A model generated the notes under the pieces. That model ran no database searches and was not told the DNA's origin. It was given only the letters and a program-made list of their open reading frames with translations. A stretch of DNA of 64,000 nucleotides, from the NCBI RefSeq assembly GCF_051474125.1, contig NZ_CP150338.1, positions 9,350,583 through 9,414,582 of the forward strand, written 5' to 3'. Each line of letters begins with the position of its first letter. Within the stretch, counting starts at the first letter, position 1. Positions 13,794 to 48,615 of the stretch are shown here, piece after piece. The translations under genes were made by a program, and so were the position numbers. This DNA comes from Sorangium sp. So ce388 (GTDB lineage Bacteria > Myxococcota_A > Polyangia > Polyangiales > Polyangiaceae).

Positions 13794-15557
13794 ATGCCGA
13801 ATCGTCAGGGATGGATCGACGAGGAGTACAGCGGCGGGCGTGGACGCGACGAGGAGAGGTCTGGGCGAAACCAGGGTCAGCGAGGGGATGAGGGATATCG
13901 TGGCGAGCGCGGGGCCGCCGGCGATGCTAGCTACGGACATCGTGGCAATTACGAGCAAGTACTCCAGCGAGACGATCATCGCCATGCCCGAAGCGGTCAG
14001 GACGAGTTCCGTCGGTCGGATCAGCGGGAGTTCGGCGGACGCGGCTACGAGGGTGAGCTCGGCGGACGCGGCCACGAGCGCGACCAGGGCTGGCGCGGCC
14101 AAGGCGGCGAGCGCGGTCACGGTGGCGAGCGCGGCTGGGAAGGCCGGCAGGAGCGCGGCTGGGGACAGCGCGAGGACTTCGGAGGCCAGCACCACGCATC
14201 GGGTGGCCAGCGCGATGACTTCCAGCGAGGAGGTCGCGACGATCTTGGCTCCAGGCGCGGCTACGGCGGCGGCCAGGGCGGCTTCGGTGGCGGCCAGGGC
14301 GGCTTCGGCGGCGGCCAGGGCGGTCACGGCGGCCAAGGTCACTTCGGCGGCGGCCAGGGCAGCTACGGCGGCCAAGGCAGCTTCGGCGGCGGCCAAGGCG
14401 GTTACAGCGGCGGCCAGGGCGGATTCGGCGGCGGCCAGGGCGGCTTCGGTGGCGGCCAGGGCGGCTTCGGTGGTCAGGGTGGATACGGCGGCAGCCAGGG
14501 CGGCTATGGAGGTCAGGGCACCTTCGGCGGCCAGGGCGGATTCACCGGCGGCCAGGGCGGCTACGGCGGCAGCCAGGGCGGCCAGGGCGGCCAGGGCTAT
14601 TTCGGCAGCGAGCATGAGCTCGGCGGCGGCCGGGGTGGTCATGGCGGGCAGGGTGGATTCGGCGGCAGCCAGGGCGGCTACGGCGGCGGCCAGAGCAACT
14701 TCGGCGGTCAGGGTGGATTCGGCGGCAGCCAGGGCGGCTACGGCGGCGGCCAGAGCAGCTTCGGCGGTCAGGGTGGATTCGGCGGCAGCCAGGGCGGCTA
14801 TGGCGGCGGCCAGGGTAGCTTCGGCGGCCAGGGTGGATTCGGTGGCCAGGGTGGATCTGGTGGCAGCCAGGGCGGCTTCGGTGGCCAGGGAGGCTTCGGC
14901 GGAGGCCAGCACCAGGGCTACGGAGTCCGCGGCGGCCTCCGGCAGTGGGCCGACGACGAGCGCGGCTGGACCGAGCGTTCCGGGCAGCAGCGCGGCTACG
15001 AGGGACAGGGATTCCGCGGCGATCAGGGCTCTTACCCCCAGTCGGGTGGGCAGGGCTTCGGCGGTCAGGGCCACCAGTCCGGCGGACGGAGCTTCCTCGA
15101 TACCGTTGGGCAGGGTGGAGGAGTCGGCGGTTCGCGCGGTCGCGCGCCCAAGGGCTACAAGCGCTCGGACGACCGGATTCGCGAGGACATCTGCGACCAG
15201 ATCTCCGAGCACCCGGACCTCGACGCGAGCGACGTCGAGGTGAAGGTCCAGAACGGCGAGGTCGTCCTCTCCGGGACCGTCCGCGAGCGCCGCTTCAAGC
15301 ACCAGCTCGAGTCGCTCGCGGAGCGGATCTCGGGCGTGAACGACGTGCGGAACGAGATCCGGATGTACCGAGAGCAGCAGCAGGGCGAGGCGAAGACGGG
15401 CTCCGGGCTCTCGTCGGGCGAGCGCTCCACCGCGTCCGGCACCACCGGGGGCCTCTCCGGCTCCACGGCGGGCGCTTCCGGCACCGCGACCTCCGTCGGC
15501 GCCACGTCGTCGTCGGAGACGAAGAACAACGAGTCGTCGCGCCGTAACGCCTCGTAG
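13794..15557 (+). CDS. Glycine-rich low-complexity protein with about 40 GGQGGFGG repeats and a C-terminal BON domain.
   Basis: ATG at 13794 with an AGGCGGAGGAG SD. It has an R/E/D/G-rich N-terminus, a 24-nt tandem coding repeat across ~14270-14900, and a C-terminal BON-like block (DASDVEVKVQNGEVVLSGTV....LAERISGVNDVRNEI). Confidence 0.65.
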   Translation: MPNRQGWIDEEYSGGRGRDEERSGRNQGQRGDEGYRGERGAAGDASYGHRGNYEQVLQRDDHRHARSGQDEFRRSDQREFGGRGYEGELGGRGHERDQGWRGQGGERGHGGERGWEGRQERGWGQREDFGGQHHASGGQRDDFQRGGRDDLGSRRGYGGGQGGFGGGQGGFGGGQGGHGGQGHFGGGQGSYGGQGSFGGGQGGYSGGQGGFGGGQGGFGGGQGGFGGQGGYGGSQGGYGGQGTFGGQGGFTGGQGGYGGSQGGQGGQGYFGSEHELGGGRGGHGGQGGFGGSQGGYGGGQSNFGGQGGFGGSQGGYGGGQSSFGGQGGFGGSQGGYGGGQGSFGGQGGFGGQGGSGGSQGGFGGQGGFGGGQHQGYGVRGGLRQWADDERGWTERSGQQRGYEGQGFRGDQGSYPQSGGQGFGGQGHQSGGRSFLDTVGQGGGVGGSRGRAPKGYKRSDDRIREDICDQISEHPDLDASDVEVKVQNGEVVLSGTVRERRFKHQLESLAERISGVNDVRNEIRMYREQQQGEAKTGSGLSSGERSTASGTTGGLSGSTAGASGTATSVGATSSSETKNNESSRRNAS

Positions 15558-19830: not shown

Positions 19831-21360
19831 ATGAGAAAGAGCACCGCGGCGACCTTGGTCCTCCTGCTGTCCCCGTGGGCGATCGGCTGCGGAACTGCGC
19901 CCGGCGTGAACGACCCTGGCGTGACGCCTTGTGAAGGCACCTCGTGCGAGGACGAGCCGCCCCCGGAGTCGGTCTGCGTCGAGCACGTCGCCGCCGATAT
20001 CCTCGACGACGGCTGCGGCGTATTCGTCGCTGGAGCCTTGGGTGGGGGCGACGACAGGAACCCCGGCACGAAGGCGAAGCCGGTGTTCACCGTCGAGCGC
20101 GCCGTCGAGCTCGCGCGCACTGGACGAGGGCGCGTGTTCATCTGCAATGACGGATTCGTTGTGCATCAGATCAGGATGCCCTCCGGCGTGGACCTCCTCG
20201 GGGGCTTCGACTGCCGGAAATGGGTCCGCAGCGATCTGCCCAAGCGGTCCTCGTTTTCTCACGAGCGGGTCTTCGGCCCCATGGTGATCGTCGAACCCGC
20301 GGGGCCCGAGGACAGGGGGGCCGCGGACGGGGTATCGACGCTCGCCGATCTCTACGTTCGCTCGTGGGGCCCGGTCGGCGTGCTCGTTCAGTCGGGCACG
20401 GCGGTGGAGATCCTTCGGAGCGAGATCTCCGCCAGCGTAGGGGATGGAAACGGACACGGCGAGAAGTGGCCGACCACGCAACCGGACGGACCGGATGGCA
20501 TGTTCGGTGGGGACGCGTGCTCGGCGACCGTCGTCGCTGGCGGGCCTGCGGCCGTGAACCGGTGCGAGAGCGGGCTCACGAGCATCGGTGGCAAGGGAGG
20601 CGACGGGCTGCCCGACAGCGCCGAGGATGGAGACGATGGGGAGCCCGCCGACCTTTTGCCAGCCGCACGCGGTGGTAGCGGGGAGCGGGACAACCTCAGT
20701 TGCAGCAGCGGATCCGAGGGCGGCCCGGGGGCTCCGGGAACACAGGGCGCCCCCAGCAAGGGCATCGGGCGCCTCACCGAGACAGGATGGAAGGGCGACA
20801 CGGGCGGCGAGGGGACCTGGGGCACGCCGGGCCAGGGCGGCGGCGGCGGCGGCGGTCGCCGGGGCGGGCTCGCCGTGTGCGGCGTGGCCTCGAAGGGTGG
20901 CCCAGGAGGAGGCTCGGGAGGGGCCGGCGGTTGCGGAGGCCGCGGAGGCCGCGGGGGAGCGAACGGACAGCCGTCCATCGGCGTCCTCGCGCTTCACGCC
21001 CGAGTGACCGTGCGCGACACCAAGATCACGGCGGACGCTGGCGGCAACGGCGGCGACGGCGGGGAACCCCAGGACGGCGGCCGAGGCGGCCGCGGCGCAC
21101 CGGGCGGAACGCTGGGGGATGAGCTCGCCGCCTGCTTCGGCGGTCGGGGCGGCCAAGGAGGGCCCGGCGGCTACGGCGGACCCGGGCGCGGCGGCGACTC
21201 GATCGGCATCGCCTACATCGACGAGGACCAGCTCACGCTCGAGGGCGTCACCATCGAGACCGGGCAACCGGGCAAGGGCGGCACGAGCTGGAACTACGAT
21301 GGCAGCACGACGGTTGGAGAGAGCGGCGAGGCCCACGAGACGCTTCGCTTTCCGGAATAG
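19831..21360 (+). CDS. Lipoprotein Z2, paralogue of Z1 with a beta-helix module and Gly-rich C-terminus.
   Basis: ATG at 19831 after an AGGAGACG SD. Signal/lipobox MRKSTAATLVLLLSPWAIGC. Shares the CGVFVAGALGGGDDRNPGTKAKPVFTVERAV motif. Its last ~555 nt are repeated at 24606..25155. Confidence 0.65.
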   Translation: MRKSTAATLVLLLSPWAIGCGTAPGVNDPGVTPCEGTSCEDEPPPESVCVEHVAADILDDGCGVFVAGALGGGDDRNPGTKAKPVFTVERAVELARTGRGRVFICNDGFVVHQIRMPSGVDLLGGFDCRKWVRSDLPKRSSFSHERVFGPMVIVEPAGPEDRGAADGVSTLADLYVRSWGPVGVLVQSGTAVEILRSEISASVGDGNGHGEKWPTTQPDGPDGMFGGDACSATVVAGGPAAVNRCESGLTSIGGKGGDGLPDSAEDGDDGEPADLLPAARGGSGERDNLSCSSGSEGGPGAPGTQGAPSKGIGRLTETGWKGDTGGEGTWGTPGQGGGGGGGRRGGLAVCGVASKGGPGGGSGGAGGCGGRGGRGGANGQPSIGVLALHARVTVRDTKITADAGGNGGDGGEPQDGGRGGRGAPGGTLGDELAACFGGRGGQGGPGGYGGPGRGGDSIGIAYIDEDQLTLEGVTIETGQPGKGGTSWNYDGSTTVGESGEAHETLRFPE

Positions 21361-21403
21361 CCGCGGTCACGTCACGGAAGGACGGCGCAGATCTCCGCGA
21401 CGG

Positions 21404-22513
21404 CTATGAGTATGAGGAGGCGCCAGAATCCGCGTCGCCGAGCCAGCTATCGAGGAAGCACGAGGCCCAGGCGACCATGGCGGCCGGCGGCGCGCCCTGA
21501 CCGTCCCACGAAGCGACCAGCGCCTCGAGCTCGCGGATGGCAGCTTCGAGCTCGCGCTTGGAAGCGACTCCGCGCGGAGTCTTCGGCGGATCCATGAGCA
21601 CCCGAGTTTTTGCAAGCACGCTCAATATTTCCTCTTTGCGCAGGACCCCATCTGTTGTCACCCCCCCGAAGAAGGCGCCCTGCGCCTCTGGCATCAGGCT
21701 CCACAAGATGTTGTAGAGCGCCGCCAGTACCTTGAGGACTGCAACGAATCTTCCTGTCAGGTTGCTCGCATCAACGTCTACGCCAGGTGTCCGCACTTCA
21801 CCTGGCGAAGCGGGCACCCATTCCTGACCGACCGTAAAGAAGCAGTCGTAGAGTCTAGCCTCCCCGACGGTCCGCAAGTTCACCGTCACGTCCGGCACGA
21901 GCACGACGCCGACCTCAGGCGGCATGCGTTCACAACCGAAGGTCGCTTCGATATCGCGGGCTATCCACTCTACGTACGGCAGTTCGTCGGCCGATAGCTC
22001 GAAGTCGATGTACGACTCATTGAACGTGACACTCATTAGCCTTTCCTCATCCGAATTTGACACGAGCTCCGGATCGCGCGGACTTCGTGAGATGAAGAAG
22101 TTTATACCACCAAAGACAACCCTGAATCTCTCTGGCTGCCTCACAAACTGGACCAGGCGATAGCCATAGACAATATAGTAAGGAACGAGGAAACTAATTT
22201 TAAACCACAGCGTTCGGCCGTTGGCTGCGCTTGGTAGAGAAAACGAAAAAGAGTAGCAAGCGTCCAAGGACCCCGTAGGCAGGTGGAACGAATCGTTCAT
22301 GACAGCGCAATCAGGGAATCGCTCTTCGATCCGACGCAGCAACGCAGGCCAACGTTCGTCCGCTGCCGCGCGTCGCCGCGCGGCCACTAGACGGCCGTAC
22401 TCCTCGGTTTCCTTGTAGCGCTGAATGTCGTCTTGCTCGATCCCGTCAATCCCACGTGGGTGATATCTGTGGACAACGTCCAGCAGATCTCTAACACTGT
22501 GCTTCATAGCCAT
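21404..22513 (-). CDS. X1: cytoplasmic protein of unknown function (~370 aa). Candidate cognate/immunity partner of Y and paralogue of X2.
   Basis: No signal peptide. About 50% aa identity to X2 (25167..26282) over the full length. Low-GC (~48-52%) DNA. Start taken at MAMKHSV with an AAGGCGGA SD. Confidence 0.5.
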   Translation of the reverse strand: MAMKHSVRDLLDVVHRYHPRGIDGIEQDDIQRYKETEEYGRLVAARRRAAADERWPALLRRIEERFPDCAVMNDSFHLPTGSLDACYSFSFSLPSAANGRTLWFKISFLVPYYIVYGYRLVQFVRQPERFRVVFGGINFFISRSPRDPELVSNSDEERLMSVTFNESYIDFELSADELPYVEWIARDIEATFGCERMPPEVGVVLVPDVTVNLRTVGEARLYDCFFTVGQEWVPASPGEVRTPGVDVDASNLTGRFVAVLKVLAALYNILWSLMPEAQGAFFGGVTTDGVLRKEEILSVLAKTRVLMDPPKTPRGVASKRELEAAIRELEALVASWDGQGAPPAAMVAWASCFLDSWLGDADSGASSYS

Positions 22514-22615
22514 ACCGCTTCCGCCTTGAGTTCGGGCGCGAATGTTCCCCCCCCCTTTTCCGTCCCATCCCTGCCTCCTATTGACCTCGGGGGCGTCCAA
22601 GGATGCAGGGAAGGA

Positions 22616-23338
22616 TCAATTCATGAGCCTGGCACCTAGGCCCCTGTAATTTTCATCCTTCTCAAACCGTTGGCGCATCTCAGTCTTGAATTTCTCGCAG
22701 AATATACCAGGTGGAAGATCGGTAAGCCCTTCTTTGTAAAACCTTTCAGCTATCTGATTCGCCAGATCGGAACTGATGAACGCTGCCCTCTCCGCCGAGA
22801 TCTCTCCCCAAGCCCGACTTCGTAATGGCATCCCGATGTGAACCGTGCACGCGTCGACGCCTCGGTCACCTCGTCTGAACACTAACCCCGCCTTCGCTTC
22901 CTGCCAACCACCTGCGACGGTCCCGTCGTAAGCTACGATGGTGACAAAATTGAACTCCGACGGTCCGAATACCTAAATGTTGCAACCCATTTGCGGAGAG
23001 CCGCTCTGCTGGCATGGGTCTGTCGGGCTCGTCGGGCTGGCAGTCGGCCTATCCGAGCTGTCGCTCGGGCGTTCCTCTTCCTCTCCGTCTTCATCCTCCG
23101 TTTTGTTGCACTGGATCTTCTCCTTCTTGCCATCCTGCGGGCCTTCTGGCGGCTCCGCCCCGAAGGCCCCCGATGCGCCGGAGCTGAAGACGGGAACGGG
23201 CGGCCCGACGGGTCCACCTCCCCCCTCACCCTTCTCCCACTCCTCTCGGGGATAGCAGTCTCCCACCGTCCAGTTGCACGCCGATAGCACCCAGACGGCG
23301 ACAGCCACAACCAGCAGCAGACTTCTTTTTGCGTTCAT
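22616..23338 (-). pseudogene. Y1: lipoprotein gene disrupted by an in-frame TAG. The N-terminal 122 codons are identical to Y2 and the C-terminal domain is diverged.
   Basis: MNAKRSLLLVVAVAVWVLSAC... is identical to Y2 up to the linker. The reading then runs ...MGCNI-stop(TAG)-VFGPSEFNFVTIVAYDG..., continuing as ORF 22616..22882. That ORF is homologous (~45%) to the Y2 C-terminal domain. Confidence 0.5.
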
Positions 23339-23868
23339 TTTGCACCCCATCGAAGCACGGGACCGGCGGCGACAAGCACCGACCAATGACCTGGAAGCAC
23401 AAGGCTGCTCCCGCCGACCCAGTCCACATTGGCGCTCACCGACACGCCGAGCGGTCCGGCGACGTACGCGTTGGCTTGCGCATGCGCGCCCACCGCCATC
23501 CCGGCGACGCGCCCGCACAAGGCGCTGCCGCACGCCGGCATGAAGTAGATCGCGGGTGATGGCCCCGCGCTGACATCGCCGCTCTTCCACGCGTACCCGA
23601 CCGCGACGGACGTGTGATTGTACACGCCGGCCCCACCGATCTGGATGGGCGGCACGACGCTGCACAGATCGTGAACCCTGAACAGGAGCTCTCTCGTGAT
23701 GTGCCACGATATCCCCGCGTTCGGTCCCACCGTGAGGCGCCGAGCGGTGCCGGCCTGGATCCACCCGACACCCACGCCGGTGCTCAGCTCGGCCGCCTCC
23801 ACCTGCGCCGGAACGAGCGCGAGAGCGACCATCGCCGCCGATGGGAGCCGCCGGGATGTCGTCCTCAT
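23335..23868 (-). CDS. W1: small secreted protein (177 aa) with a signal peptide. It is Gly-rich and possibly an outer-membrane beta-barrel-like accessory protein.
   Basis: Signal peptide MRTTSRRLPSAAMVALALVPAQVEA. Alternating hydrophobic patterns are visible. It is identical to W2 and its stop overlaps the Y start. Confidence 0.5.
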   Translation of the reverse strand: MRTTSRRLPSAAMVALALVPAQVEAAELSTGVGVGWIQAGTARRLTVGPNAGISWHITRELLFRVHDLCSVVPPIQIGGAGVYNHTSVAVGYAWKSGDVSAGPSPAIYFMPACGSALCGRVAGMAVGAHAQANAYVAGPLGVSVSANVDWVGGSSLVLPGHWSVLVAAGPVLRWGAK

Positions 23869-24124
23869 CGCCTCCTTTCGCCTCCCAGCAACAGCCGAGC
23901 AACGTGACGGCGCGAGCCATTCTTCGGAATGTGGAATTGGGCGTCAAACGGAAACTGGGCGAGAACATCGCAATGGACGTGGGCAACCGTCCGAGGCGTG
24001 CACTGTTGCGCGCCCACCTGCGCGGCGCGAGTGCTTGCCAGCTCGATCACCGCGCTCGACCGGGACGCCGAGTGGCGATGGGGATCTGCCCAAGCCAGAA
24101 GGACCACGCGGTAAGAAGCGCCCT

Positions 24125-24605
24125 CCCCTCCTGCAGACCGGCCGCCCTCCTGCGCAACCTCGCCGTCCGCCTGCGCAGACCGGCCGCTCCTCCTGCGCAG
24201 GTCCGCCGCCCGCCAACACAGACCCGCCGCCTCTGCTGCGCCCCCCCGCCGCCCGCCTGCGCAGACCGGCCGCCCCTCCTGCGCAGCCCCGCCGCCCGCC
24301 TGCGCAAACCGGCCGCCCCTCCTGCGCAGCCCCGCCGCCCCTCCTGCGCAGCCCCGCCGCCCGCCTGCGCAAACCGGCCGCCCCTCCTGCGCAGCCCCGC
24401 CGCCCTCCTGTGCACCTGATTTCGTGAACTACGCTACAGTCGCGCGCCCCCTGCGCGGTCCGTTCTGTACCCTACACAACAAAATTGCGGCTCCTGCGCA
24501 GCCCCGCCGCCCTCCTGCGCCGCTCGTCGCCCCCTCCTGCGCACCCCCGCCGCCTTCCTGCGCAACCCAGCCCTCCTCCTGCGCAGCCCTTTCCGCGGGC
24601 GGCGA
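24125..24605. repeat. Array A: about 17 degenerate 21-22 bp direct repeats with a conserved CCTGCGCA core, plus a unique ~70-bp insert.
   Basis: Units such as cctgcgcagccccgccgcccg / cctgcgcaaaccggccgcccct recur with a two-helical-turn period. TGCGCA is palindromic. A unique AT-richer island (24413-24482: ...gatttcgtgaactacgctacagtcgcg...) sits inside. The array lies upstream of W1. Confidence 0.7.
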
Positions 24606-25155
24606 GGGGACCTGGGGCACGCCGGGCCAGGGCGGCGGCGGCGGCGGCGGTCGTCGGGGCGGGCTCGCCGTATGCGGCGTGGCCTCGAAGGGTGGCCCAG
24701 GAGGAGGCTCGGGAGGTGCCGGCGGTTGCGGAGGCCGAGGAGGCCGCGGGGGAGCGAACGGACAGCCGTCCATCGGCGTCCTTGCGCTTCACGCCCGGGT
24801 GACCGTGCGCGACACCAAGATCACGGCGGACGATGGCGGCTACGGCGGCGACGGCGGGGAACCCCAGGACGGCCGCCGAGGCGGCCGAGGCGCACCGGGC
24901 GGAATGCCGGAGGATGAACTCGTCGCGTGTTACGGCGGCCGGGGCGGCCAAGGAGGGCCCGGCGGCTACGGCGGACCCGGGCGCGGCGGCGACTCGATCG
25001 GCGTCGCCTACATCGACGAGGACCAGCTCACGCTCGAGGGCGTCACCATCGAGACCGGACGGCCGGGCGAGGGCGGCACGAGCTGGAACTACGACGGAAG
25101 CACGACGGTGGGAGAGAGCGGCGAGGCCCACGAGACGCTTCGCTTTCCGGAATAG
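24606..25155 (+). pseudogene. Z': 3' fragment of a Z2-like beta-helix lipoprotein gene (C-terminal ~183 codons only).
   Basis: About 95% nt identity to 20806..21360, including the stop. The ORF-track N-terminus (24424..24605) is translated repeat array, not a credible protein start. Confidence 0.55.
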
Positions 25156-25166
25156 CCGAAGTCACG

Positions 25167-26282
25167 TCATGGGAGATCGGCGCGGAGATCGGCGACCGAG
25201 TCCACGGGCCAACTCGCCAGGAAGCTGGAGGCCCAAGCGACCATGGCGGCCGGCGGCTCGCCTTCACCGTCCCACGAAGCGACCAGCGCTTCGAGCTCGC
25301 GCTTGGCCGCCATGGCGCGGAGAGTCTTCGGTGATTCGTCGTGCGGACGCATGCGCGCAAGCTCCTCCAGCATCTTGTCCTTGTGCAGGAAGCCGTCTGT
25401 AGACGCCGACCAATAAAGCCCAAACGACTGTCGATATGGCTCAGGCAACTTCAGAATCATCCTGGGCAAATCGAGCAGCATTCCGATCTGGTAGTGCGCC
25501 CGGAGCACGGTAAGCACCCCAATAAACCGAGCTGTCAAGCTGCTCGACTCAAGCGTCACGACCGCTCCTCGCTCTGGCGGCGACGGTTCCACCCACTGAC
25601 TATCTATGGTAAAAAGACAATCGTACAACGTCGCACCGCGCATGCCAACCACCACGCCCGGCACGAGAGTGGTACCGACCTCTGGTGGCATGGGCTCGCA
25701 ACCGAAGGTCGACTCGATGTCATGGGCGATCCACGTCGCGCAAGGCCGCTCGTCCGGCGCCAGATCGAAGGTGAGCTCATGCCGGGTGACGGTCGCGCTA
25801 TGTAGCCTCTCATCATACGGGTTCAGTACGAGATCGGGCCCCAGAGCACTTCGTGGAATGGAAAAATTGATACCATACGGAACCACGAAGCCGGCAGGCG
25901 GCCTAACAAGATCGATCATGCGATAGCTGTATACGACATAGTACGGAGCCAGAAAACTCACGTGAAACCAAAGCGTTCGACGGTCGGGTGCGTTCGGCAG
26001 ATCGACCGTGAACGAATAACACGCGTCACAGGCTCCGGCGGGCAGGTGAAGTGATCGGTTCATGAGTAGCACGTCAGGGAATCGCTCTGATATGCGACGT
26101 CGCATGGCATGCCAGCGTTCGTCCTTCGATGCTTGGATCCGCGCAGCGACGAGCCGAGCGTGTTCTTCAGTCTGTTCGCGCTGGGAGTCGTCCTGCCAAA
26201 ATTGGTTCGGGTCGGGACCGCCGATCCCACGGGGGAAATACCGGTAGACGACGTCCAGTAGTTGACCGACCGTGTGCTTCAT
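25167..26282 (-). CDS. X2: cytoplasmic protein of unknown function (371 aa), candidate immunity/cognate partner of Y2.
   Basis: Starts with the ATGA overlap on the Y2 stop (translational coupling). Low-GC DNA. About 50% identical to X1. Confidence 0.55.
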   Translation of the reverse strand: MKHTVGQLLDVVYRYFPRGIGGPDPNQFWQDDSQREQTEEHARLVAARIQASKDERWHAMRRRISERFPDVLLMNRSLHLPAGACDACYSFTVDLPNAPDRRTLWFHVSFLAPYYVVYSYRMIDLVRPPAGFVVPYGINFSIPRSALGPDLVLNPYDERLHSATVTRHELTFDLAPDERPCATWIAHDIESTFGCEPMPPEVGTTLVPGVVVGMRGATLYDCLFTIDSQWVEPSPPERGAVVTLESSSLTARFIGVLTVLRAHYQIGMLLDLPRMILKLPEPYRQSFGLYWSASTDGFLHKDKMLEELARMRPHDESPKTLRAMAAKRELEALVASWDGEGEPPAAMVAWASSFLASWPVDSVADLRADLP

Positions 26283-26992
26283 GACTTGTTGACCACCACA
26301 CCAAGTTTCTTGTATTGCTCCGCGAACGTATTCTTTACGTTCGTGAAAAACTCTGAGCAGAATATGCCAGGTGGCAGCGCAAAACGACCCGCCCTCTCCA
26401 TCTCACCTGCGACCATATTTGTCACTTCAGCGCTGTACATTGCCGCATTGTCAGCCGATATACCCCCCCAAAGGTGATTTCTTATAGGCATTCCAATGCG
26501 AAGAAAACACGCTGCTACGCCATCTTCTAGGTAGATGATCAATCCTGACTTTGCCTCCTGCCAACCACCTGCCACATCAGCCCCATCGTCGGCGACGATC
26601 GTGACAAACTTGAAATCAGACGGGCCGAACCGCTTACTTGCGCACCCCATGGTCGGAGCGCCGCTCTGCTGGCAGGGGTCCGGCGGGCTCGTCGGGCTGG
26701 CAGTCGGCCTATCCGAGCTGTCGCTCGGGCTTTCCTCTCCGTCTTCATCCTCCGTTTTGTTGCACTGGATCTTCTCCTTCTTGCCATCCTGCGGGCCATC
26801 TGGCGGCTCCGCCCCGAAGGCCCCCGATGCGCCGGAGCTGAAGACGGGAACGGGCGGCCCGACGGGTCCACCTCCCCCCTCACCCTTCTCCCACTCCTCT
26901 CGGGGATAGCAGTCTCCCACCGTCCAGTTGCACGCCGATAGCACCCAGACGGCGACAGCCACAACCAGCAGCAGACTTCTTTTTGCGTTCAT
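26279..26992 (-). CDS. Y2: intact lipoprotein (237 aa) with a signal peptide and lipobox, a G/P/S/acidic linker and a ~110-aa variable C-terminal domain. Candidate polymorphic toxin.
   Basis: MNAKRSLLLVVAVAVWVLSAC (LSAC lipobox). The start overlaps the W2 stop (ATGA). The C-terminal domain is FGPSDFKFVTIVADDG...LPPGIFCSEFF in ~50% GC DNA. The ORF-track upstream extension (to 27640) is an artefact. Confidence 0.55.
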   Translation of the reverse strand: MNAKRSLLLVVAVAVWVLSACNWTVGDCYPREEWEKGEGGGGPVGPPVPVFSSGASGAFGAEPPDGPQDGKKEKIQCNKTEDEDGEESPSDSSDRPTASPTSPPDPCQQSGAPTMGCASKRFGPSDFKFVTIVADDGADVAGGWQEAKSGLIIYLEDGVAACFLRIGMPIRNHLWGGISADNAAMYSAEVTNMVAGEMERAGRFALPPGIFCSEFFTNVKNTFAEQYKKLGVVVNKS

Positions 26993-27522
26993 TTTGCACC
27001 CCATCGAAGCACGGGACCGGCGGCGACAAGCACCGACCAATGACCTGGAAGCACAAGGCTGCTCCCGCCGACCCAGTCCACATTGGCGCTCACCGACACG
27101 CCGAGCGGTCCGGCGACGTACGCGTTGGCTTGCGCATGCGCGCCCACCGCCATCCCGGCGACGCGCCCGCACAAGGCGCTGCCGCACGCCGGCATGAAGT
27201 AGATCGCGGGTGATGGCCCCGCGCTGACATCGCCGCTCTTCCACGCGTACCCGACCGCGACGGACGTGTGATTGTACACGCCGGCCCCACCGATCTGGAT
27301 GGGCGGCACGACGCTGCACAGATCGTGAACCCTGAACAGGAGCTCTCTCGTGATGTGCCACGATATCCCCGCGTTCGGTCCCACCGTGAGGCGCCGAGCG
27401 GTGCCGGCCTGGATCCACCCGACACCCACGCCGGTGCTCAGCTCGGCCGCCTCCACCTGCGCCGGAACGAGCGCGAGAGCGACCATCGCCGCCGATGGGA
27501 GCCGCCGGGATGTCGTCCTCAT
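26989..27522 (-). CDS. W2: small secreted protein identical to W1.
   Basis: Identical translation to 23335..23868. First gene of the W-Y-X operon. Confidence 0.5.
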   Translation of the reverse strand: MRTTSRRLPSAAMVALALVPAQVEAAELSTGVGVGWIQAGTARRLTVGPNAGISWHITRELLFRVHDLCSVVPPIQIGGAGVYNHTSVAVGYAWKSGDVSAGPSPAIYFMPACGSALCGRVAGMAVGAHAQANAYVAGPLGVSVSANVDWVGGSSLVLPGHWSVLVAAGPVLRWGAK

Positions 27523-27778
27523 CGCCTCCTTTCGCCTCCCAGCAACAGCCGAGCAACGTGACGGCGCGAGCCATTCTTCGGAATGTGGAATTGGGCGTCA
27601 AACGGAAACTGGGCGAGAACATCGCAATGGACGTGGGCAACCGTCCGAGGCGTGCACTGTTGCGCGCCCACCTGCGCGGCGCGAGTGCTTGCCAGCTCGA
27701 TCACCGCGCTCGACCGGGACGCCGAGTGGCGATGGGGATCTGCCCAAGCCAGAAGGACCACGCGGTAAGAAGCGCCCT

Positions 27779-28340
27779 CCCCTCCTGCAGACCGGCCGCC
27801 CTCCTGCGCAACCTCGCCGTCCGCCTGCGCAGACCGGCCGCTCCTCCGCTCCTCCTGCGCAGGTCCGCCGCCCGCCAACACAGACCCGCCGCCTCTGCTG
27901 CGCCCCCCCGCCGCCCGCCTGCGCAGACCGGCCGCCCCTCCTGCGCAGCCCCGCCGCCCGCCTGCGCAAACCGGCCGCCCCTCCTGCGCAGCCCCGCCGC
28001 CCCTCCTGCGCAGCCCCGCCGCCCGCCTGCGCAAACCGGCCGCCCCTCCTGCGCAGCCCCGCCGCCCTCCTGTGCACCTGATTTCGTGAACTACGCTACA
28101 GTCGCGCGCCCCCCTGCGCAGTCCGTTCTGTACCCTGCACAACAAAATTGCGGCTCCTGCGCAGCCCCGCCGCCCTCCTGCGCCGCTCGTCGCCCCCTCC
28201 TGCGCACCCCCGCCGCCTTCCTGCGCAACCCAGCCCTCCTCCTGCGCAGCCCTTTCTGTGTCCTGCGCAACCCCCGCCCCCCTCCTGCGCAGCCCTTTCT
28301 GTGTCCTGCGCAACACTTCCCCCTCCTGCGCATCCCCCCC
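27779..28340. repeat. Array B: about 26 copies of the CCTGCGCA-core 21-22 bp repeat, a longer version of array A.
   Basis: The first ~330 bp are identical to array A including the AT-richer island (28070-28140). Extra units at 28150-28340 (cctgcgcagccctttctgtgt... variants) follow. Confidence 0.7.
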
Positions 28341-28562
28341 GCCAGCCCCATGGCCCGCTGCTCGCTGCGCGCGCCCGGCACGCCGCCCCGCTCGACTCCG
28401 CGGCACACCACCTCTCTCAACCTCTTAAGCCAGGTACATCCTCGTGACGTGAACGAAACGTGCTCTCTTCTGGCTCATGCCTTAAACCGCCAATACCCTC
28501 GCCGATTCTCCGGCCCCTCAATCCGAGGGGCGCTGGCCCCGACAAGGAGGCGTATCTTTCGC

Positions 28563-33164: not shown

Positions 33165-33315
33165 GCGGCGCTCCCCCGCCCCGGATACGGGGCCACCTCG
33201 ACATTTCCGTGCTCGGCGCGCAGGCGTAGAAGCGCGCCTGTTCGCCGGAAACGCCGATCTGGGCCCGCCGCGTGGCAGGGCCCTCGCGCGCCCTGGCCCC
33301 GACGGTGCTCCAGCA

Positions 33316-36300
33316 GCTGAACGCTCAGCGACCGGGAGGCACCAGACGGCGGCGAAGGAGGTACTGAATGCAATCGAGCTGGTTACTGGGCGTTGGCCTG
33401 GCCTGCGCGGCGGTGGCGCTGCCAGCGGGCGAGGTCTGGGCGGCCGGAGCGCCGTCCTGGGAAAGCTTGCCCTCGATGATCACCCCGCGCGGCGGGCACA
33501 CGGCCACGTTGCTCCCGGACGGCCGCGTGCTCGTGGCGGGGGGCCACGGCAGCGACGGGACCGTGCTCCTCCGCGAGGCCGAGCTCTACGACCCGGCGAG
33601 CAAGACGTGGGCGCCCGCAGCGCCGCTTCCCAGCCCGCTCCGCGAGGTCGCCGCGACGGTCGTCCTGCCGGACGGGCTGGCGCTCTCGACGGACGGCGAG
33701 CATGTCGAGGTCTACTCCCCGGCTCTCGATCTGTGGAGCGCGGCGGCGCCCCTGACTCCGGCGCTCACGGCGCCCAAGGCCGTGCTCCTCCCGGGCGGCA
33801 AGCTGATGATGCTCGGCGGCGCGTCGGGCTCCCTCGCGGGCAGCATCTATGATGACCTCGCGGGCACATGGACCCCCATCCGATCGCTGAGCGGCGCGGC
33901 CGCCGCGACCGCGACATTGCTCCAGGACGGCCGCGTGCTCGCGGTGAACAACGGCCGCGGCAACATCTACGATCCGGAGACCGATTCCTGGACACCGTCC
34001 TACGGGGCCACCCTATGGTCCCCGACGTACCGCGCGACGCGGCTCGCCAGCGGCGACGTCCTCTTCGTGGGCGGATACGACTTCTCGTCCCAGACACCCT
34101 CGCAGCTTTACCTCCACGAGGCCGATCTCTGGCTGGCGATCCCGGGGCACGACCCCTTCTACTACCCGTATCCTGACTGCTTGCCGGTCGGGGGGGGCTT
34201 CGACAGCGGCCTGGGCGTCTCGCTGCTCCCCAGCGGACGCGTCCTCCTGACAGGAGGCATGGTGTCGTACAAATGCGGATACGAGGACGAAAATGGCCAG
34301 TTCGTGGTCTGGTCGCGCTACAGCGAGTTCAGCGCCGAGCAGGCGGTCTATGATCCGGCGTGGGCGGCCTGGGTGCCCCTCGACGTGGAGCCGCCGGAGA
34401 CGATGGCGCGCGCGGAGCACACGGTGACGAGCCTCCATGACGGCAGCGTGCTGATCGCCGGCGGGCTGGTCGCGTCCGACGTGCCCGCCGGCGCGCCGGT
34501 GCCGACGGCCTCCGCCATGCTCTTCCACGAGCGCGCGCCGCTCGGAGGGGCCTGCGAGGCCAGCGGCGACTGCGCCAGCGGCTTCTGCGCGGATTCGGTC
34601 TGCTGCGACGCGGCCTGCGCCGGTGCGTGCGACGCGTGCGCGGCCGCCGCGGGGGCCACGAAGGACGGCGCCTGCACGCCGCTCTCGGGCACGCCCTGTG
34701 ACGACAGCGACGCGTGCATCGAGGGAGGCGTCTGCGAGGCGGGCACCTGCGCTGGCGGCACCCCGGCGCCCGACGGAACCCCGTGCAACGACGGCGAGGT
34801 GTGCTCCGCGACGAGCACGTGCGAGGGGGGCGCCTGCGTCGCGGCGAGCCCGGCGAGCTGCGAGCCGCCGGACGGCTGTCACGAGCCGCCCGCGTGCGAT
34901 CCTGCGCTCGGGTGCTCGGGGCCCGCGTCCGAGAAGCCGGACGGCGCGCGCTGCGATGTCGAGGGGACGCCGGATGCCTGGCAGACCGCGGCGCGGATGC
35001 CGAACGAGATGAAGCACGCGCACACGGCCACGTTGCTGCAGGACGGCACGGTGCTGGTCATGGGGACGGAGGATAGCTCTGGCAACCGCTGGAGGGCGAT
35101 GCGCTACGACCCGAGCCTCGATCAATGGCAGCTCATCGGGGGGGTTCTGCCGGTGGTGCGGTCGATCATGTACGCCACGCTGCTGCAGGACGGCACGATG
35201 CTCGTGGCCAGTCGCGGCCGCGTGGACCGGTTCAACCCGGCCACGGGCGCATGGCAAGCGGCCGCGCCCATGCTCCTGAGTCACTCGGCGGGCACGGTGA
35301 CGCGGCTCCAGGACGGGAGGGTGCTCGTCACGGGGGGCAGCGCCGGAGAGGCGGAGGTGTATGACCCCGCCGCGGACGCCTGGACCCTGGTCGCGCCCGG
35401 GACTGCGGGGCTACGGAGTCCCAGGGCGACGCTGCTCCAGGACGGCAGAGTGCTCGTCACGGGCGGCGGCGACGACGTGATGCTCTCGGAGGTGTATGAC
35501 CCGGCGGCCGACGTCTGGACGCCTGTGGCTTCGATGATCTCGGTACGCTCGGGGTATACGGCCACGCTGCTCCACGACGGCAGGGTGCTCGTCTTGGGGG
35601 GCAACTCCGAGGGCATCCCCCTCGCGACAGCCGAGCTCTACGATCCGGCGAGCGACACCTGGACGCCAGCGGCGGAGATGGCCACCCGGCGGGATGGGAC
35701 TCGGGCCGTGCTCCTCGCCGACGGCAGGGTGCTCGTGGCGGGCAATCTGGACGGTCAGTATTCGCTCGATTATACGGCTGAGCTTTACGATCCGGCGAGG
35801 GACATCTGGTCGCCGGGGCCAGCCATGGACATGCCGCTCACCTATAGCGTGGCGGTGCGGCTGGAGGACGGACGCGTTCTGATGGCGGGCGGCCGGCTCG
35901 GCAGTGTGTACTACCCGTCCCCCCTCGCGCACCTCTATGTTCCTGGGCAGGGTCCGGGCACAGGGGTGTGCCAGGCTGGCGTATGCTTGCCGAGCGCAGG
36001 TGGAGAGGGTGGCGCCGGCGGCAGCGGCGGTGAGGCCAGCGGCGCCGGCGGCAGCGGCGGCGAGGCCAGCGGCGCCGGCGGCAGCGGCGGTGACGCGAGT
36101 GGCGCCGGCGGCCGAAGCGATGCTGCCAGCGGCGGTGGCATGAGCGGCAGCGGAGGCAGCGGAGCTGGCGGCAGCGGGGCTGGCGGCAGCGGGGGCGATG
36201 CCAGCACAGCTGGCGGCGGCGATACCACGAGCACGAGCGCGGGCCATGGCAGCGGGACGGGCGAAGGGGGTAGCGCCGGTGAAACCGGCGCGCAGAGCGG

Positions 36301-36611
36301 CGCTGGCGGCGGCCCGCCAGGTGGATACATCGCTGGTTGGTATTGCCAGATGGGGCCCGGAATCCAGGATACACCCACATGGCTCGTCCTCGTCGGGGGG
36401 CTCGCTGCGCTGCGCGTACGCCGGCGCTCCGCGCGGCTCCGCGGTGACGCGGTGACGCGCCCGCGCAGCCCGACGTGACGTCGGTCGACAGCAGCGCTTC
36501 CCTTCGCCATCAATCCGGGGGAATCCACGAGTCGTAGCGTCAGGTGTTCTATGCCGACCAGCGCGTACAGCATGGCTGTACGACGGGACGGCCGATTCGA
36601 GGAGCCTGGCT
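33316..36611. repeat. Tandem duplication unit 1 of the Kelch/MYXO-CTERM gene with its flanks (~3.3 kb).
   Basis: Upstream 60 bp (agctgaacgctcagcgaccgggaggcaccagac.gcggcgaaggaggtactgaATG) and downstream ~150 bp are repeated at 36612..39951. The genes are ~85-90% identical. Confidence 0.7.
33368..36478 (+). CDS. Secreted Kelch-repeat propeller protein with a central Cys-rich domain, a second propeller, a Gly/Ser-rich linker and a MYXO-CTERM-like sorting tail.
   Basis: Signal peptide MQSSWLLGVGLACAAVALPAGEVWA. Recurring LLxDGRVLVxGG Kelch blades. Cys-rich block GGACEASGDCASGFCADSVCCDAAC... A GGSGGEASGAGG repeat. The tail ...WYCQMGPGIQDTPTWLVLVGGLAALRVRRRS is Cys, then TM, then an Arg cluster. 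Confidence 0.8.
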   Translation: MQSSWLLGVGLACAAVALPAGEVWAAGAPSWESLPSMITPRGGHTATLLPDGRVLVAGGHGSDGTVLLREAELYDPASKTWAPAAPLPSPLREVAATVVLPDGLALSTDGEHVEVYSPALDLWSAAAPLTPALTAPKAVLLPGGKLMMLGGASGSLAGSIYDDLAGTWTPIRSLSGAAAATATLLQDGRVLAVNNGRGNIYDPETDSWTPSYGATLWSPTYRATRLASGDVLFVGGYDFSSQTPSQLYLHEADLWLAIPGHDPFYYPYPDCLPVGGGFDSGLGVSLLPSGRVLLTGGMVSYKCGYEDENGQFVVWSRYSEFSAEQAVYDPAWAAWVPLDVEPPETMARAEHTVTSLHDGSVLIAGGLVASDVPAGAPVPTASAMLFHERAPLGGACEASGDCASGFCADSVCCDAACAGACDACAAAAGATKDGACTPLSGTPCDDSDACIEGGVCEAGTCAGGTPAPDGTPCNDGEVCSATSTCEGGACVAASPASCEPPDGCHEPPACDPALGCSGPASEKPDGARCDVEGTPDAWQTAARMPNEMKHAHTATLLQDGTVLVMGTEDSSGNRWRAMRYDPSLDQWQLIGGVLPVVRSIMYATLLQDGTMLVASRGRVDRFNPATGAWQAAAPMLLSHSAGTVTRLQDGRVLVTGGSAGEAEVYDPAADAWTLVAPGTAGLRSPRATLLQDGRVLVTGGGDDVMLSEVYDPAADVWTPVASMISVRSGYTATLLHDGRVLVLGGNSEGIPLATAELYDPASDTWTPAAEMATRRDGTRAVLLADGRVLVAGNLDGQYSLDYTAELYDPARDIWSPGPAMDMPLTYSVAVRLEDGRVLMAGGRLGSVYYPSPLAHLYVPGQGPGTGVCQAGVCLPSAGGEGGAGGSGGEASGAGGSGGEASGAGGSGGDASGAGGRSDAASGGGMSGSGGSGAGGSGAGGSGGDASTAGGGDTTSTSAGHGSGTGEGGSAGETGAQSGAGGGPPGGYIAGWYCQMGPGIQDTPTWLVLVGGLAALRVRRRSARLRGDAVTRPRSPT

Positions 36612-36673
36612 TTCGCCAGGAGCTGAACGCTCAGCGACCGGGAGGCACCAGACAGCGGCGAAGGAGGTACTGA

Positions 36674-39600
36674 ATGCAATCGAGCTGGTTACTGGGCGTT
36701 GGCCTGGCCTGCGCGGCGGTGGCGCTGCCAGCGGGAGAGGTCTGGGCGGCCGGAGAGCCGTCCTGGGAGAGCTTGCCCTCGATGATCACCCCGCGCAGCG
36801 GGCACGCGGCCACGTTGCTCCAGGATGGTCGGGTGCTCGTGGCGGGGGGCCACGGCAGCGACGGGACCGTGCTCCTCCGGGAGGCCGAGCTCTACGACCC
36901 GGCGAGCAAGACGTGGGCGCCCGCGGCGCCGCTTCCCAGCGCGCTCCGCGAGGTCGCCGCGACGGCCGTGCTGCCGGACGGGCTGGCGCTCTCGACGGAC
37001 GGCGAGCACGTCGAGGTCTATTCCCCGGATCTCGATCTGTGGAGCGCGGCGGCGCCCCTGACTCCGGCGCTCACGGCGCCCAAGGCCGTGCTCCTCCCGG
37101 GCGGCAAGCTGATGATGCTCGGCGGCGCGTCGGGCTCCCTCGCGGGCAGCATCTATGATGATCTCGCGGGCACATGGACTCCCATCCGATCGCTGAGCGG
37201 CGCGGCCGCCGCGACCGCGACGTTGCTCCAGGACGGCCGCGTGCTCGCGGTGAACAACGGCCGCGGCAACATCTACGATCCGGAGACCGATTCCTGGACA
37301 CCGACCTCCGACTTCGTCAACCGCTACTCGGGGTACCGCGCGACGCGGCTCGCCAGCGGCCACGTCGTCTTCGTGGGCGGCGTCCTGCCCTGGAACCCGC
37401 TCCTCTCGCAGCTTTACCTCCCCGAGGCCGATCTCTGGGTGGCGATCCCGGGGCATGACGTCCCCATCGACATACTCGCTGATTGCGAGCCGGACGCGGA
37501 CTTCGACAGGGGCGTGGCCGTCTCACTGCTTCCCAGCGGACGCGTCCTCCTGACAGGCGGCGTGATGTCGTACTACTGCGCAGCCTACGACGAGAATGGC
37601 CATCCCTGGAACGAGTGGCACCATCACGAATTCAAGATCGCGCCGGAGCTCTATGATCCGGCGAGAGCTTCCTGGGTGCTCCTCGACGTGCGGCCGCGCA
37701 ATCTGATGGATCGCGGGTATCACACGACGACGAGCCTCGACGACGGCAGCGTGCTGATCGCGGGCGGGCTCGTCGCGTCCGGCGCCGCGCTGGTGCCGAC
37801 GGCCTCCGCCATGCTCTTCCACGAGCGCGCGCCGCTCGGAGGGGCCTGCGAGGCCGGCGGCGACTGCGCCAGCGGCTTCTGCGCGGATTCGGTCTGCTGC
37901 GATGCGGCCTGTGCCGGTCCGTGCGACGCGTGCGCGGCCTCGGCCGGGGCCGCGCAGGACGGCGTCTGCACGCCGCTCTCGGGCACGCCCTGCGACGACA
38001 CCGACGCGTGCCTCGAGGGAGGCGTGTGCGAGGCGGGCACCTGCGCTGGCGGCACCCCGGCGCCCGACGGAACCCCGTGCAACGACGGCGAGGTGTGCTC
38101 CGCGACGAGCACGTGCGAGGGGGGCGCCTGCGTCGCGGCGAGCCCGGCGAGCTGCGAGCCGCCGGACGGCTGTCACGAGCCGCCCGCGTGCGATCCTGCG
38201 CTCGGGTGCTCGGGGCCCGCGCCCGAGAAGCCGGACGGCGCGCGCTGCGATGCCGAGGGGACGCCGGACGCCTGGCAGGCCGCGGCGCGGATGCCGAACG
38301 AGATGAAGTACGCGCGCACGGCCACGTTGCTGCAGGACGGCACGGTGCTGGTCCTGGGGACGGAGGATAGCTCTGGCAGCCGCTGGAGGGCGATGCGCTA
38401 CGACCCGAGCATCGACCGATGGCAGCTCATCGAGGGGGTTCTGCCGGTGGTGCGGTCGATCATGTACGCCACGCTGCTGCAGGACGGCACGGTCCTCGTG
38501 GCCAGTCGCGGCCGCGTGGACCGGTTCAACCCGGCCACGGGCGCATGGCAAGCGGCCGCGCCCATGCTCCTGAATCGCACATCGGGCACGGCGACGCGGC
38601 TCCAGGACGGGAGGGTGCTCGTCACGGGGGCCAGCGACGGATCCGCGGAGGTGTATGATCCCGCCGCGGACGTCTGGACCCTGGTCGCCCCCGGGCCTGC
38701 GGGGCTACGGAGTCCCACGGCGACGCTGCTCCAGGACGGCAGAGTGCTCGTCATCGGCGGCGACGACCTCATGGGGCGCGCGGAGGTGTATGACCCGGCG
38801 GCCGACGTCTGGACGCCTGTGGCGTCGATGCTCTCGGCACGCCGGGGGCATCGGGCCACGCTGCTCAACGACGGCAGGGTGCTCGTCCTGGGGGGCAACT
38901 CCGACGGCATCCCCCTCGCGACAGCCGAGCTCTATGATCCGGCGAGCGACACCTGGACGCCAGCGGCGGAGATGGCCATCTGGCGGAATGGGACTCGGGC
39001 CGTGCTCCTCGCCGACGGCAGGGTGCTCGTGACGGGCAATCTGGATGGTATGTACTCGCTCGATTATACGGCTGAGCTATACGATCCGTCGACGGACATC
39101 TGGTCGCCGGGGCCTCGATTGGACATCCCGCTCTCCAACCTCGTGATGGCGCGGCTGGAGGACGGGCGCGTCATGATGGTGGGCGGCGAGCTCGGCGCTG
39201 CGTCCTACCCGTCCCCTCTCGTGCACCTCTATGTTCCTGGGCAGCGTCCGGGCACAGGGGTCTGCCAGGCTGGCGTATGCTTGCCGAGCGCAGGAGGAGA
39301 GGGTGGCGCCGGCGGCAGCGGCGGTGAGGCCAGCGGCGCCGGCGGCAGCGGCGGTGAGGCCAGCGGCGCCGGCGGCGGCGGCGGTGAGGCCAGCGGCGCC
39401 GGCGGCAGCGGCGGTGAGGCCAGCGGCGCCGGCGGCAGCGGCGGTGAGGCCAGCGGCGGTGGCGTGAGCGGCAGCGGAGGCAGCGGAGATGCTGCCAGTG
39501 GTGCTGGCGGCACCGGGGGCGATGCCAGCACGGCTGGCGGCGGTGGCACCACGACCACGAGCGCAGGCCATGGCAGCGGAACGGGCGAAGGGGGCAGCGC

Positions 39601-48484: not shown

Positions 48485-48615
48485 TCCATCTCCTCTCTCG
48501 CCGCCGCGCGAGCGGCGCCCCGAGCGTCGATGGCGCGGCGGATCTTCCGTAAAATCTGGCGAGCTGCGCGGCGGCCCGGGCGGGCCGCCGCGCGCTCTTC
48601 ACGGGCCGACCGGGG

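Follow-up and report, generated by a model that had tools for sequence, protein, structure and literature searches.

A lipoprotein gene interrupted by a single nonsense codon, lying in tandem with an intact copy, was found in a 64,000-nucleotide (nt) stretch of the Sorangium sp. So ce388 genome (contig NZ_CP150338.1, positions 9,350,583 to 9,414,582 of the forward strand; hereafter the window, numbered from its first letter). The gene, Y, is the middle member of a minus-strand operon that encodes a small secreted protein (X0), a lipoprotein (Y) and a cytoplasmic protein (X1), and the operon is present twice, as copies A and B, in a head-to-tail tandem duplication with units of ~3.7-3.8 kb (unit A, ~20800-24604; unit B, ~24596-28267), each of which ends in the 3' part of a convergent gene for a Gly-rich lipoprotein (GLY). 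The best explanation of the locus as a whole, to which we give a rough probability of 0.55, is that part of unit B was copied into unit A by gene conversion, within a module resembling the SitBAI lipoprotein toxin cassettes of Myxococcus, and that copy A now consists of a recently killed effector (Y_A) with a kept protector (X1_A).

Premature stop codon in Y_A

An in-frame TAG at 22975-22973 on the minus strand interrupts Y_A, copy A reading MGCNI-stop-VFGPSEF and copy B MGCASKRFGPSDF, just as the first-pass annotation of this DNA had reported. All four intact orthologues of the same subtype (in loci L001, L008, L014 and L019) have TCG (Ser) at the position of the stop codon, within the motif MGCN-I-S-VFEPS, and because they read TCG the lesion of Y_A comes down to a single C>A transversion (TCG to TAG). 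Past the TAG the Y frame remains open for 118 codons, up to the TGA at 22618-22616; the other two frames hold five stops each, and only 0.27% of the shuffled versions of this segment were free of stops. The first-pass annotation had also described a split of the gene into a 122-amino-acid (aa) stub and an orphan 88-aa open reading frame (ORF). Both exist, although the stub is 121 aa in length (122 codons with the stop) and the ORF is the GTG-started tail of the longer open frame, lacking the first 30 residues of the domain, several of which are invariant.

All family-invariant residues are kept in Y_A (53/53) and in X1_A (40/40), the latter being intact as first described. The C-terminal domain (C-domain) of Y_A is 77-86% identical to those of the intact A-type orthologues, and its ratio of nonsynonymous to synonymous substitution rates (dN/dS) against these orthologues is 0.31-0.43, compared with 0.34-0.46 among the intact orthologues themselves. 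Y_A carries no defect other than the nonsense change. Since the frame is open, the invariant residues are kept and dN/dS is like that of the intact orthologues, the stop must be either very recent or an error. A sequencing or assembly error, with Y_A intact in the organism, would fit a TAG that is one base away from the orthologous TCG in a gene otherwise undamaged in its frame, its 53 invariant residues and its dN/dS. Against this, consensus errors in single-contig assemblies (here of 14.9 Mb) are mostly indels and not C>A substitutions, and in the closely related strain So ce1153 Y_A has been lost too, through a deletion, which makes loss of the gene biologically plausible. In the GenBank numbering X1_A (XXR64792) is directly followed by X0_A (XXR64793); because the protein numbers run on in this way the deposited annotation contains no Y_A product, as fits an internal stop in the deposited assembly, although this is silent on whether the base was called correctly. 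The stop is almost certainly present in the assembly and very probably real in the organism, and an error is improbable. Recoding or readthrough of the TAG was also considered and was dropped, as no feature supports it and the serine is simply encoded in the orthologues.

Identity break between the two copies

Over 24451-23085 (1,367 nt) the only differences between copies A and B are a substitution at 23144 and an 8-nt indel within the 43-nt repeats upstream of X0, and X0 together with the first 65 codons of Y is 100% identical. The next differences are an indel at 23084-23079, then 23071, 23023, 23021, 23015, 22999, 22993-91 and 22985, after which they become dense. The maximum-likelihood single changepoint lies at 23084 (2-log-likelihood support interval 23088-22999), and a fit with two changepoints placed them at 23084 and 22891, with difference rates of 0.65%, 20% and 45% in the three successive segments. 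Sliding-window identity between the copies runs from 100% to 72%, to ~50% and back to ~95%; the collapse is not completed within a few base pairs. A sharp break had originally been placed at 22985. The break is real and non-random but stepwise, and residues R (23071), T (23023/21) and S (22999) of Y_A are common to the A-type proteins of other strains (P0021 and P0040), so that native A-type sequence begins by 23071 and the junction lies at ~23144-23071, ~100 nt upstream of 22985. The drop seen near 22990 marks the border of a linker island (PDPCQQSG-AP-MGC), which in 19 modules of all types retains 87% nucleotide identity. The 6-nt indel near the junction is likewise real, but its description as part of a Ser-rich linker (SSSSPSSSS against SSPSSSS) derives from spurious plus-strand ORFs (22977..23255 and 26535..26909); in the Y frame it reads GEEEERPSD in copy A and GEESPSD in copy B, within an acidic tract whose length also varies between strains.

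Downstream, identity returns to ~90% at 21544 (the 3' end of X1) and is 95% across the 3' part of GLY. This right flank carries 27 substitutions in 560 nt (4.8%), compared with one in 1,367 nt on the left. Among the 19 modules two conserved islands (23047-22983 and 21551-21447) bracket the variable cassette, which consists of the Y C-domain and X1, and the island formed by the X1 3' end and GLY 3' region retains ~90% identity across types. The interior of the cassette is 45-50% diverged at the nucleotide level, and its GC content is 49-60% (21600-22950 and 25350-26650) against a window mean of 71%. The A and B C-domains are not unrelated modules but homologous, with 52% aa identity; the Y C-domain and X1 alleles together fall at 52-53%. 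Orthologues of each allele exist in other strains, and the best-matching strain changes from segment to segment along the locus.

Homologous recombination or gene conversion is a highly probable cause of this mosaic. The identical tract would have been copied from unit B into unit A by recent gene conversion or some equivalent homologous exchange, the tract ending in the acidic linker just ahead of sequence too divergent for recombination; the linker island and the island at the 3' ends of X1 and GLY may act as homology arms for cassette shuffling and for unit duplication. Judged from sequence comparison, B was probably the donor and A the recipient, because the B constant region of So ce388 is ~98% identical to that of So ce1153. 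The original proposal of cassette replacement by recombination therefore keeps its mosaic and the conserved sequence on both sides of the cassette, but it is the constant part of copy A that appears to have been overwritten by that of copy B. An ancient duplication with uniform divergence was rejected, since the two flanks differ ~65-fold in divergence.

Unit B might instead have been duplicated recently, without any gene conversion, and the Y C-terminus and X1 of one copy then replaced by DNA imported from another strain. The family-conserved islands around the cassette could serve as homology arms for such an import, different cassette types lie next to GLY at one orthologous locus in different strains, and the cassette is low in GC. 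A single duplication whose interior was then replaced does not, however, account for a right flank diverged by 4.8% beside an essentially identical left flank, and in So ce1153 X1_A and the end of Y_A already lie beside GLY, because of which the A cassette appears older than the current identical tract. We regard import into a fresh duplicate as rather unlikely; it differs from conversion mainly in which segment is named the donor, both being homologous recombination at the same junctions.

The features of the two units are collected in Table 1. The X0 stop codon overlaps the Y start (ATGA), and in copy B the X1_B start overlaps the Y_B stop in the same way (ATGA). In A-type modules a spacer of 102 nt lies ahead of X1_A. 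No X0-Y-X1 module other than copies A and B was found in the window.

Table 1. Features of the duplicated locus in window coordinates; .., range on the given strand.
Feature	Position	Strand	Description	Accession or basis
GLY	19831..21360	+	509-aa Gly-rich lipoprotein gene, convergent with X1_A	ORF and translation
X1_A	21404..22513	-	369 aa, intact, without signal peptide; putative immunity partner of copy A	So ce388 protein XXR64792
Y_A C-terminal domain after the stop	22616..22972	-	118 open codons and TGA; contains the 88-aa ORF 22616..22882	
Y_A premature stop (TAG)	22973..22975	-	TCG (Ser) in L001, L008, L014 and L019	
Y_A 5' part	22976..23338	-	121-aa stub: signal peptide, lipobox LSAC, conserved motif CNWTVGDCYPREE, disordered linker	
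Probable recombination (gene-conversion) junction zone	23071..23144	-	6-nt indel 23084-23079 in acidic (GAR)n tract	Difference list, changepoints, type-diagnostic residues
Near-identical tract, A against B	23085..24451 (B: 26740-28113)	-	Upstream repeats, promoter-like site, X0, Y N-terminus	
X0_A	23335..23868	-	177 aa, secreted, type I signal peptide; 100% identical to X0_B	XXR64793
Promoter-like site	23947-23919	-	Within the near-identical tract, upstream of X0_A	
GC-rich 21/43-nt tandem repeats (CTCCTGCGCAGCCCCGCCGCC)	24125..24589	.	Upstream of X0_A, where the two tandem units meet	
GLY 3' fragment duplicate	24596..25155	+	560 nt, end of tandem unit B; 95% identical to 20801-21360	
X1_B	25167..26282	-	371-aa partner of copy B; aa sequence same as So ce1153 protein and as a So ce388 protein	
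Y_B	26279..26992	-	Intact 237-aa lipoprotein	Identical to So ce388 protein P0001
X0_B	26989..27522	-		So ce388 protein XXR64796

GC-rich repeats lie upstream of both X0 copies (24125-24589 and 27787-28343), with periods of 21, 43 and 65 nt. The repeat unit CTCCTGCGCAGCCCCGCCGCC contains the palindrome CTGCGCAG, with 14 copies at up to one mismatch where none is expected by chance, and repeat copy number accounts for one 8-nt difference between units A and B. Plus-strand ORFs would translate these repeats as Pro-rich peptides. The 21/43-nt repeat was rejected as a feature of the family, being absent from all 65 other loci examined. Elsewhere in the window, a second large tandem duplication (33310-36478 and 36616-39787) carries two ORFs of ~1,037 aa that are blockwise 77-96% identical and contain internal periodic repeats of 15 and 30 nt, and further long repeat arrays occupy 14208-14966, 44548-46095, 48592-49232 and 50197-51275.

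The module in other strains and genera

The orthologous locus was recognised in other strains by its flank (GLY, a 543-aa gene, a 330-aa gene and a sigma-70 gene). Its content varies: a single B module in So ce145, a long-type module and an A-type module in So ce1036, a B module with unrelated DNA in So ce429, and a B module with an orphan X1_A in So ce1153, compared with the B module and broken A module of So ce388. The B module of So ce1153 (L066) is 95-100% identical to that of the window, X1_B differing by 1 nt in 1,113. So ce1153 lacks the equivalent of window positions 24894-22683 (2.2 kb), and with it the remainder of the GLY fragment, the repeats, X0_A and the initial 219 codons of Y_A. 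At the junction (L066 8834/8836) the middle of the GLY fragment runs, with microhomology (TG/TGCGCC), into the final 21 codons of Y_A, and beyond these X1_A is intact and 97.6% identical in aa sequence to X1_A of So ce388. Because an insertion could not rebuild an in-frame, orthologue-like Y_A, So ce1153 must be the deletion derivative.

Y_A thus bears two different lesions in two strains, a nonsense codon and a deletion, and X1_A is kept in both. Between the two strains X1_A has 18 synonymous and 9 nonsynonymous codon changes (rough dN/dS ~0.2), and it has stayed under constraint. Divergence between So ce388 and So ce1153 is itself a mosaic along the locus (0.1% in X1_B, 2.5% or 28/1,107 nt in X1_A and ~12% in GLY), which implies a recent exchange of the B module between lineages and because of which the two Y_A lesions are not necessarily independent.

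In 38 Sorangium loci the X0-Y-X1 triad is near-universal and the type of Y C-domain co-varies with the type of X1. A-type C-domains (77-86% identity) always accompany A-type X1 (80-84%), and B-type Y accompanies X1_B-like genes (87-92%), while X0 is ~65-80% identical whatever the cassette type. Among ~100 Y clusters all named members are from Sorangium, with several paralogues per genome, and the remainder are from metagenomes. Polyangium and soil metagenomes contain X1 and X0 as well, and X1 is also present in a metagenome-assembled genome of Minicystis; no Myxococcus member was seen for X1 or X0 (for X0, among 148 matches). A profile search of 1.84 billion representatives with Y gave 342 matches (50% clustering), most of them to the C-domain alone behind other signal peptides or lipoboxes. 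On contig L064, for example, the window-type C-domain has another leader and X0 is missing, yet an X1 homologue still follows and overlaps the gene.

X0 is also found with other C-domains. In Polyangium jinanense, P. fumosum, Polyangium sp. 15x6 and metagenome contigs it overlaps a lipoprotein gene with a wholly different Cys-rich C-domain. All three classes have a leader in common (ACN[WY]TxG[DE]C..., then a Gly-rich linker, then a CN motif), so that at least three mutually unrelated C-terminal classes are found on one leader and X0, each with its own downstream gene. The second class is a ~100-aa helical domain with at least 12 cysteines (CDDKCQAGYD...RRACQD...CGF; L040 6525-8091, L042 6480-8049, L049, L050 and L060), and in 4/4 loci its partner is a ~340-aa cytoplasmic protein beginning MTLHIATS, with a sub-threshold match to DUF1835. 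The third class is likewise Cys-rich (YCRKRGLD...CKNGWP...C.YT; L045/L047, L054, L059, L063 and L041) and is accompanied in 4/4 loci by a ~120-aa helical protein. In Polyangium sp. 15x6 (L041) the third-class lipoprotein gene is apparently frameshifted.

An X1-type gene lies downstream of every intact Y, and no Y was seen without one. Extra X1 or short-X1 genes are common, with up to four after one Y and arrays in L022, L023 and L025. In L021 and L024 a C-terminal fragment of Y has an X1-type gene behind it, X1 stands as an orphan in L006, L019 and L066, and fragmentary Y or X0 followed by X1 is found among L006, L021, L024, L038 and L039. In So ce1128 (L006 2331-4962) an N-terminal fragment of X0 precedes two intact X1 genes, of which one has 80% identity to X1_A, and no Y is present; this is another case of a lost Y and a kept X1. 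The short forms of X1 (~188-260 aa), which correspond to its N-terminal two thirds, lie downstream of long-type Y proteins. X1 fusions were seen in P0132, P0137, P0143, P0147 and P0148 (552-554 aa) and in P0195 (483 aa); the fusion is to a short-X1 paralogue, in the order short then long, and in one case to a C-terminal DUF6968 domain.

Full-length GLY lies downstream of X1 in more than 20 loci (tblastn), and at most Sorangium loci, among them paralogous loci of a single genome, the two genes are convergent. As in the window, 3' fragments of GLY stand between tandem modules in other strains, the 3' 130 codons forming a recurrent unit boundary. GLY may be a fourth component of the system, or merely a recombination anchor.

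Proposed function and comparison with known systems

Neither Y, X1, X0 and GLY nor the neighbouring genes gave a significant match in Pfam, NCBIfam, PADLOC or PHROGs; the only library matches were those of DUF6968 on the X1 fusion and, below threshold, of DUF1835 on the second-class partner. Against PDB sequence profiles Y, X1 and X0 gave non-significant matches only, among them one of X1 to CdiI-o11 (E = 0.35), which we do not use as evidence. An AlphaFold2 model of Y_B shows a signal peptide, a disordered stretch (residues 21-117; predicted local distance difference test score, pLDDT, <50) and an alpha/beta domain (120-237; pLDDT ~90), whose best, and weak, fold resemblance is to SPFH/FliL-type membrane-associated domains. 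The lipobox region of Y reads MNAKRSLLLVVAVAVWVLSAC|NWT, with Asn at position +2; a residue other than Lys at +2 is the outer-membrane sorting rule for Myxococcus lipoproteins (general knowledge, noted in a supplement that cites Bhat 2011). Window-type C-domains have conserved cysteines, and the two alternative classes are very rich in them.

We propose that this module corresponds, in Polyangiaceae, to the myxobacterial SitB-SitA-SitI cassettes. X0 would help to export and lipidate Y, the C-domain of Y would be an effector shown to, or transferred into, neighbouring cells, and X1 would be the cognate cytoplasmic protector. Y_A would then be a recently killed effector, and X1_A may have been kept as still useful against neighbours with an A-type effector. 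The first-pass annotation had already suggested an inactivated toxin with retained immunity; the broken Y_A and the kept X1_A bear out its factual core, and the variety of C-domains and the So ce1153 lesion add support, but Y is a putative toxin only, its toxicity being inferred from family behaviour. An effector/immunity function of the module we rate at slightly under even odds. More tentatively still, X0, the Y leader and the variable C-domains with their partners may form an undescribed polymorphic lipoprotein effector/immunity system across Polyangiaceae, analogous but not homologous to SitBAI, with at least three new effector folds and three immunity families. On this proposal the So ce388/So ce1153 locus would have caught turnover in progress, with conversion of the constant part, loss of the effector (by nonsense change or deletion) and retention of orphan immunity.

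Several observations weigh against such a function. No toxin signature, fold or family was found in Y, X1, X0 or GLY by family libraries and fold comparison; positive selection left no signal, pairwise within-type dN/dS being an ordinary 0.19-0.48 throughout; and a search of viral contigs returned no relatives of X0. The Cys content of the C-domains would suit action outside the cytoplasm, yet the partners are all without signal peptide, which sits awkwardly with a classical toxin/immunity pair. X1, with its ~370 aa, would be a large immunity protein, and the Y leader (~100 aa, predicted to be disordered) is unlike the ~375-aa escort domain of SitA. In addition, the So ce388 genome may contain further A-type Y genes beyond the window, in which case X1_A would perhaps be no true orphan, and the nonsense change and the So ce1153 deletion are not necessarily independent, as the nonsense change may have come first.

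These points lend some weight to a different account, in which the module is a lineage-specific envelope family without antagonism, Y being a structural or signalling outer-membrane lipoprotein, X1 its cytoplasmic chaperone, maturation factor or regulator, Y_A a redundant paralogue in decay since the tandem duplication and the mosaic the product of routine gene conversion among paralogues. The failure to detect a toxin or immunity family or fold, the weak likeness of the Y C-domain to membrane-associated domains, the combination of Cys-rich C-domains with cytoplasmic partners and the ordinary dN/dS all agree with it, as does the movement of the GLY lipoprotein gene with the module, which suggests a larger envelope unit. 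Neither a chaperone nor a maturation factor should outlive its client, however, and yet X1 outnumbers Y, with up to four X1-type genes per Y, and X1_A is kept and constrained in two strains that have no functional Y_A at the locus. Nor would an envelope role lead one to expect one leader and X0 to carry at least three unrelated C-domains, each with its own unrelated partner; a single trafficking leader with alternative C-domains and partners is the defining pattern of polymorphic effector systems (PMC3482391). We therefore consider a purely structural or signalling family unlikely, though less so than either a sequencing error in Y_A or an imported cassette, and retain conversion within a SitBAI-like module as the preferred reading.

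A nonsense-mutated paralogue beside a gene-conversion tract would be ordinary on its own, and the interest of the locus lies in its family context. None of the protein families is annotated, though some are widespread (the Y C-domain with its 342 representative matches), and their genomic behaviour is like that of a polymorphic effector/immunity system, with an architecture as in Myxococcus kin discrimination via outer-membrane exchange. If the proposal is true, SitBAI-type social toxins reach the Sorangiineae, large-genome makers of natural products, new effector and immunity folds are to be expected, and the A/B pair that occurs naturally in So ce388 and So ce1153 offers a ready test system for orphan immunity. 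If Y is no toxin, the strict pairing of C-domain with partner and the keeping of X1 without Y still want explaining.

The closest parallel is SitBAI, the lipoprotein toxins of Myxococcus delivered by outer-membrane exchange, a transfer that depends on TraA/TraB and kills cells without immunity. There the first gene overlaps the second and encodes a secreted protein predicted to be an outer-membrane beta-barrel; a lipoprotein with conserved N-terminus and variable C-terminal toxin comes next, followed by an immunity gene (PMC5562445, PMC8546572); Sorangium cellulosum encodes traAB (PMC6372800). The module has the same gene order, with a first, overlapping gene whose product has a type I signal peptide, then the lipoprotein, then a cytoplasmic partner specific to the C-domain, and like SitBAI it is present in many copies per genome. 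The SitA4, SitA6 and SitA7 families also each consist of one homologous toxin domain with allelic variants, as do the A and B alleles here. The pairing of C-domain and partner is strict (window-type with X1, and 4/4 loci for each of the two other classes), and the partner is a putative immunity protein. Unlike SitBAI, however, the module has no detectable sequence relation to it (Pfam/NCBIfam, even at E <=1), and it is set apart from SitA by library scans and published descriptions: its leader is ~100 aa and predicted to be disordered as against a SitA escort of ~375 aa, Y is 237 aa in length as against 543-784 aa, the C-domains match no nuclease or known toxin whereas the characterised SitA toxins are all nucleases, and the viral contigs searched for X0 relatives gave no link to prophage. 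The 2017 lists of SitA homologues have no Sorangium or Polyangium entries; the 2019 definition of six families, which lies outside this comparison, may already cover the family.

The MafA/MafB system of Neisseria similarly combines a conserved upstream gene for an envelope protein with a toxin whose N-terminus is lineage-restricted and whose C-terminus is polymorphic (PMC3482391). In Maf the lipoprotein is the upstream MafA, whereas here it is the variable protein itself, and there is no homology. Among bacteriocins, colicins E2, E7, E8 and E9 are nuclease toxins with immunity proteins of ~85 aa. Like the A and B pairs of Y C-domain and X1, nuclease colicins have diverged homologous effector domains with a co-diverged partner immediately downstream, but the partner here is ~370 aa in length, as against ~85 aa for the immunity proteins of the known nucleases.

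Orphan modules of contact-dependent growth inhibition (CDI; cdiA-CT/cdiI) and Rhs systems resemble the locus in having cassettes of variable C-terminus and partner between conserved sequence that permits recombination, in the extra partner genes and truncated effector fragments near a full-length gene, and in partners kept after loss of the effector. They differ in that whole operon units are duplicated here (X0, the promoter region and a fragment of the convergent gene), and not C-terminal fragments alone, and in that a lipoprotein leader, rather than a type V secretion (T5SS) or type VI secretion (T6SS)/Rhs scaffold, would act as the delivery domain. With respect to polymorphic toxin systems in general (PMC3482391), the C-domain falls in no recognised toxin class, but the module does combine a conserved N-terminal trafficking region with unrelated C-domains, and it has both orphan C-terminal/partner cassettes and evidence of recombination.

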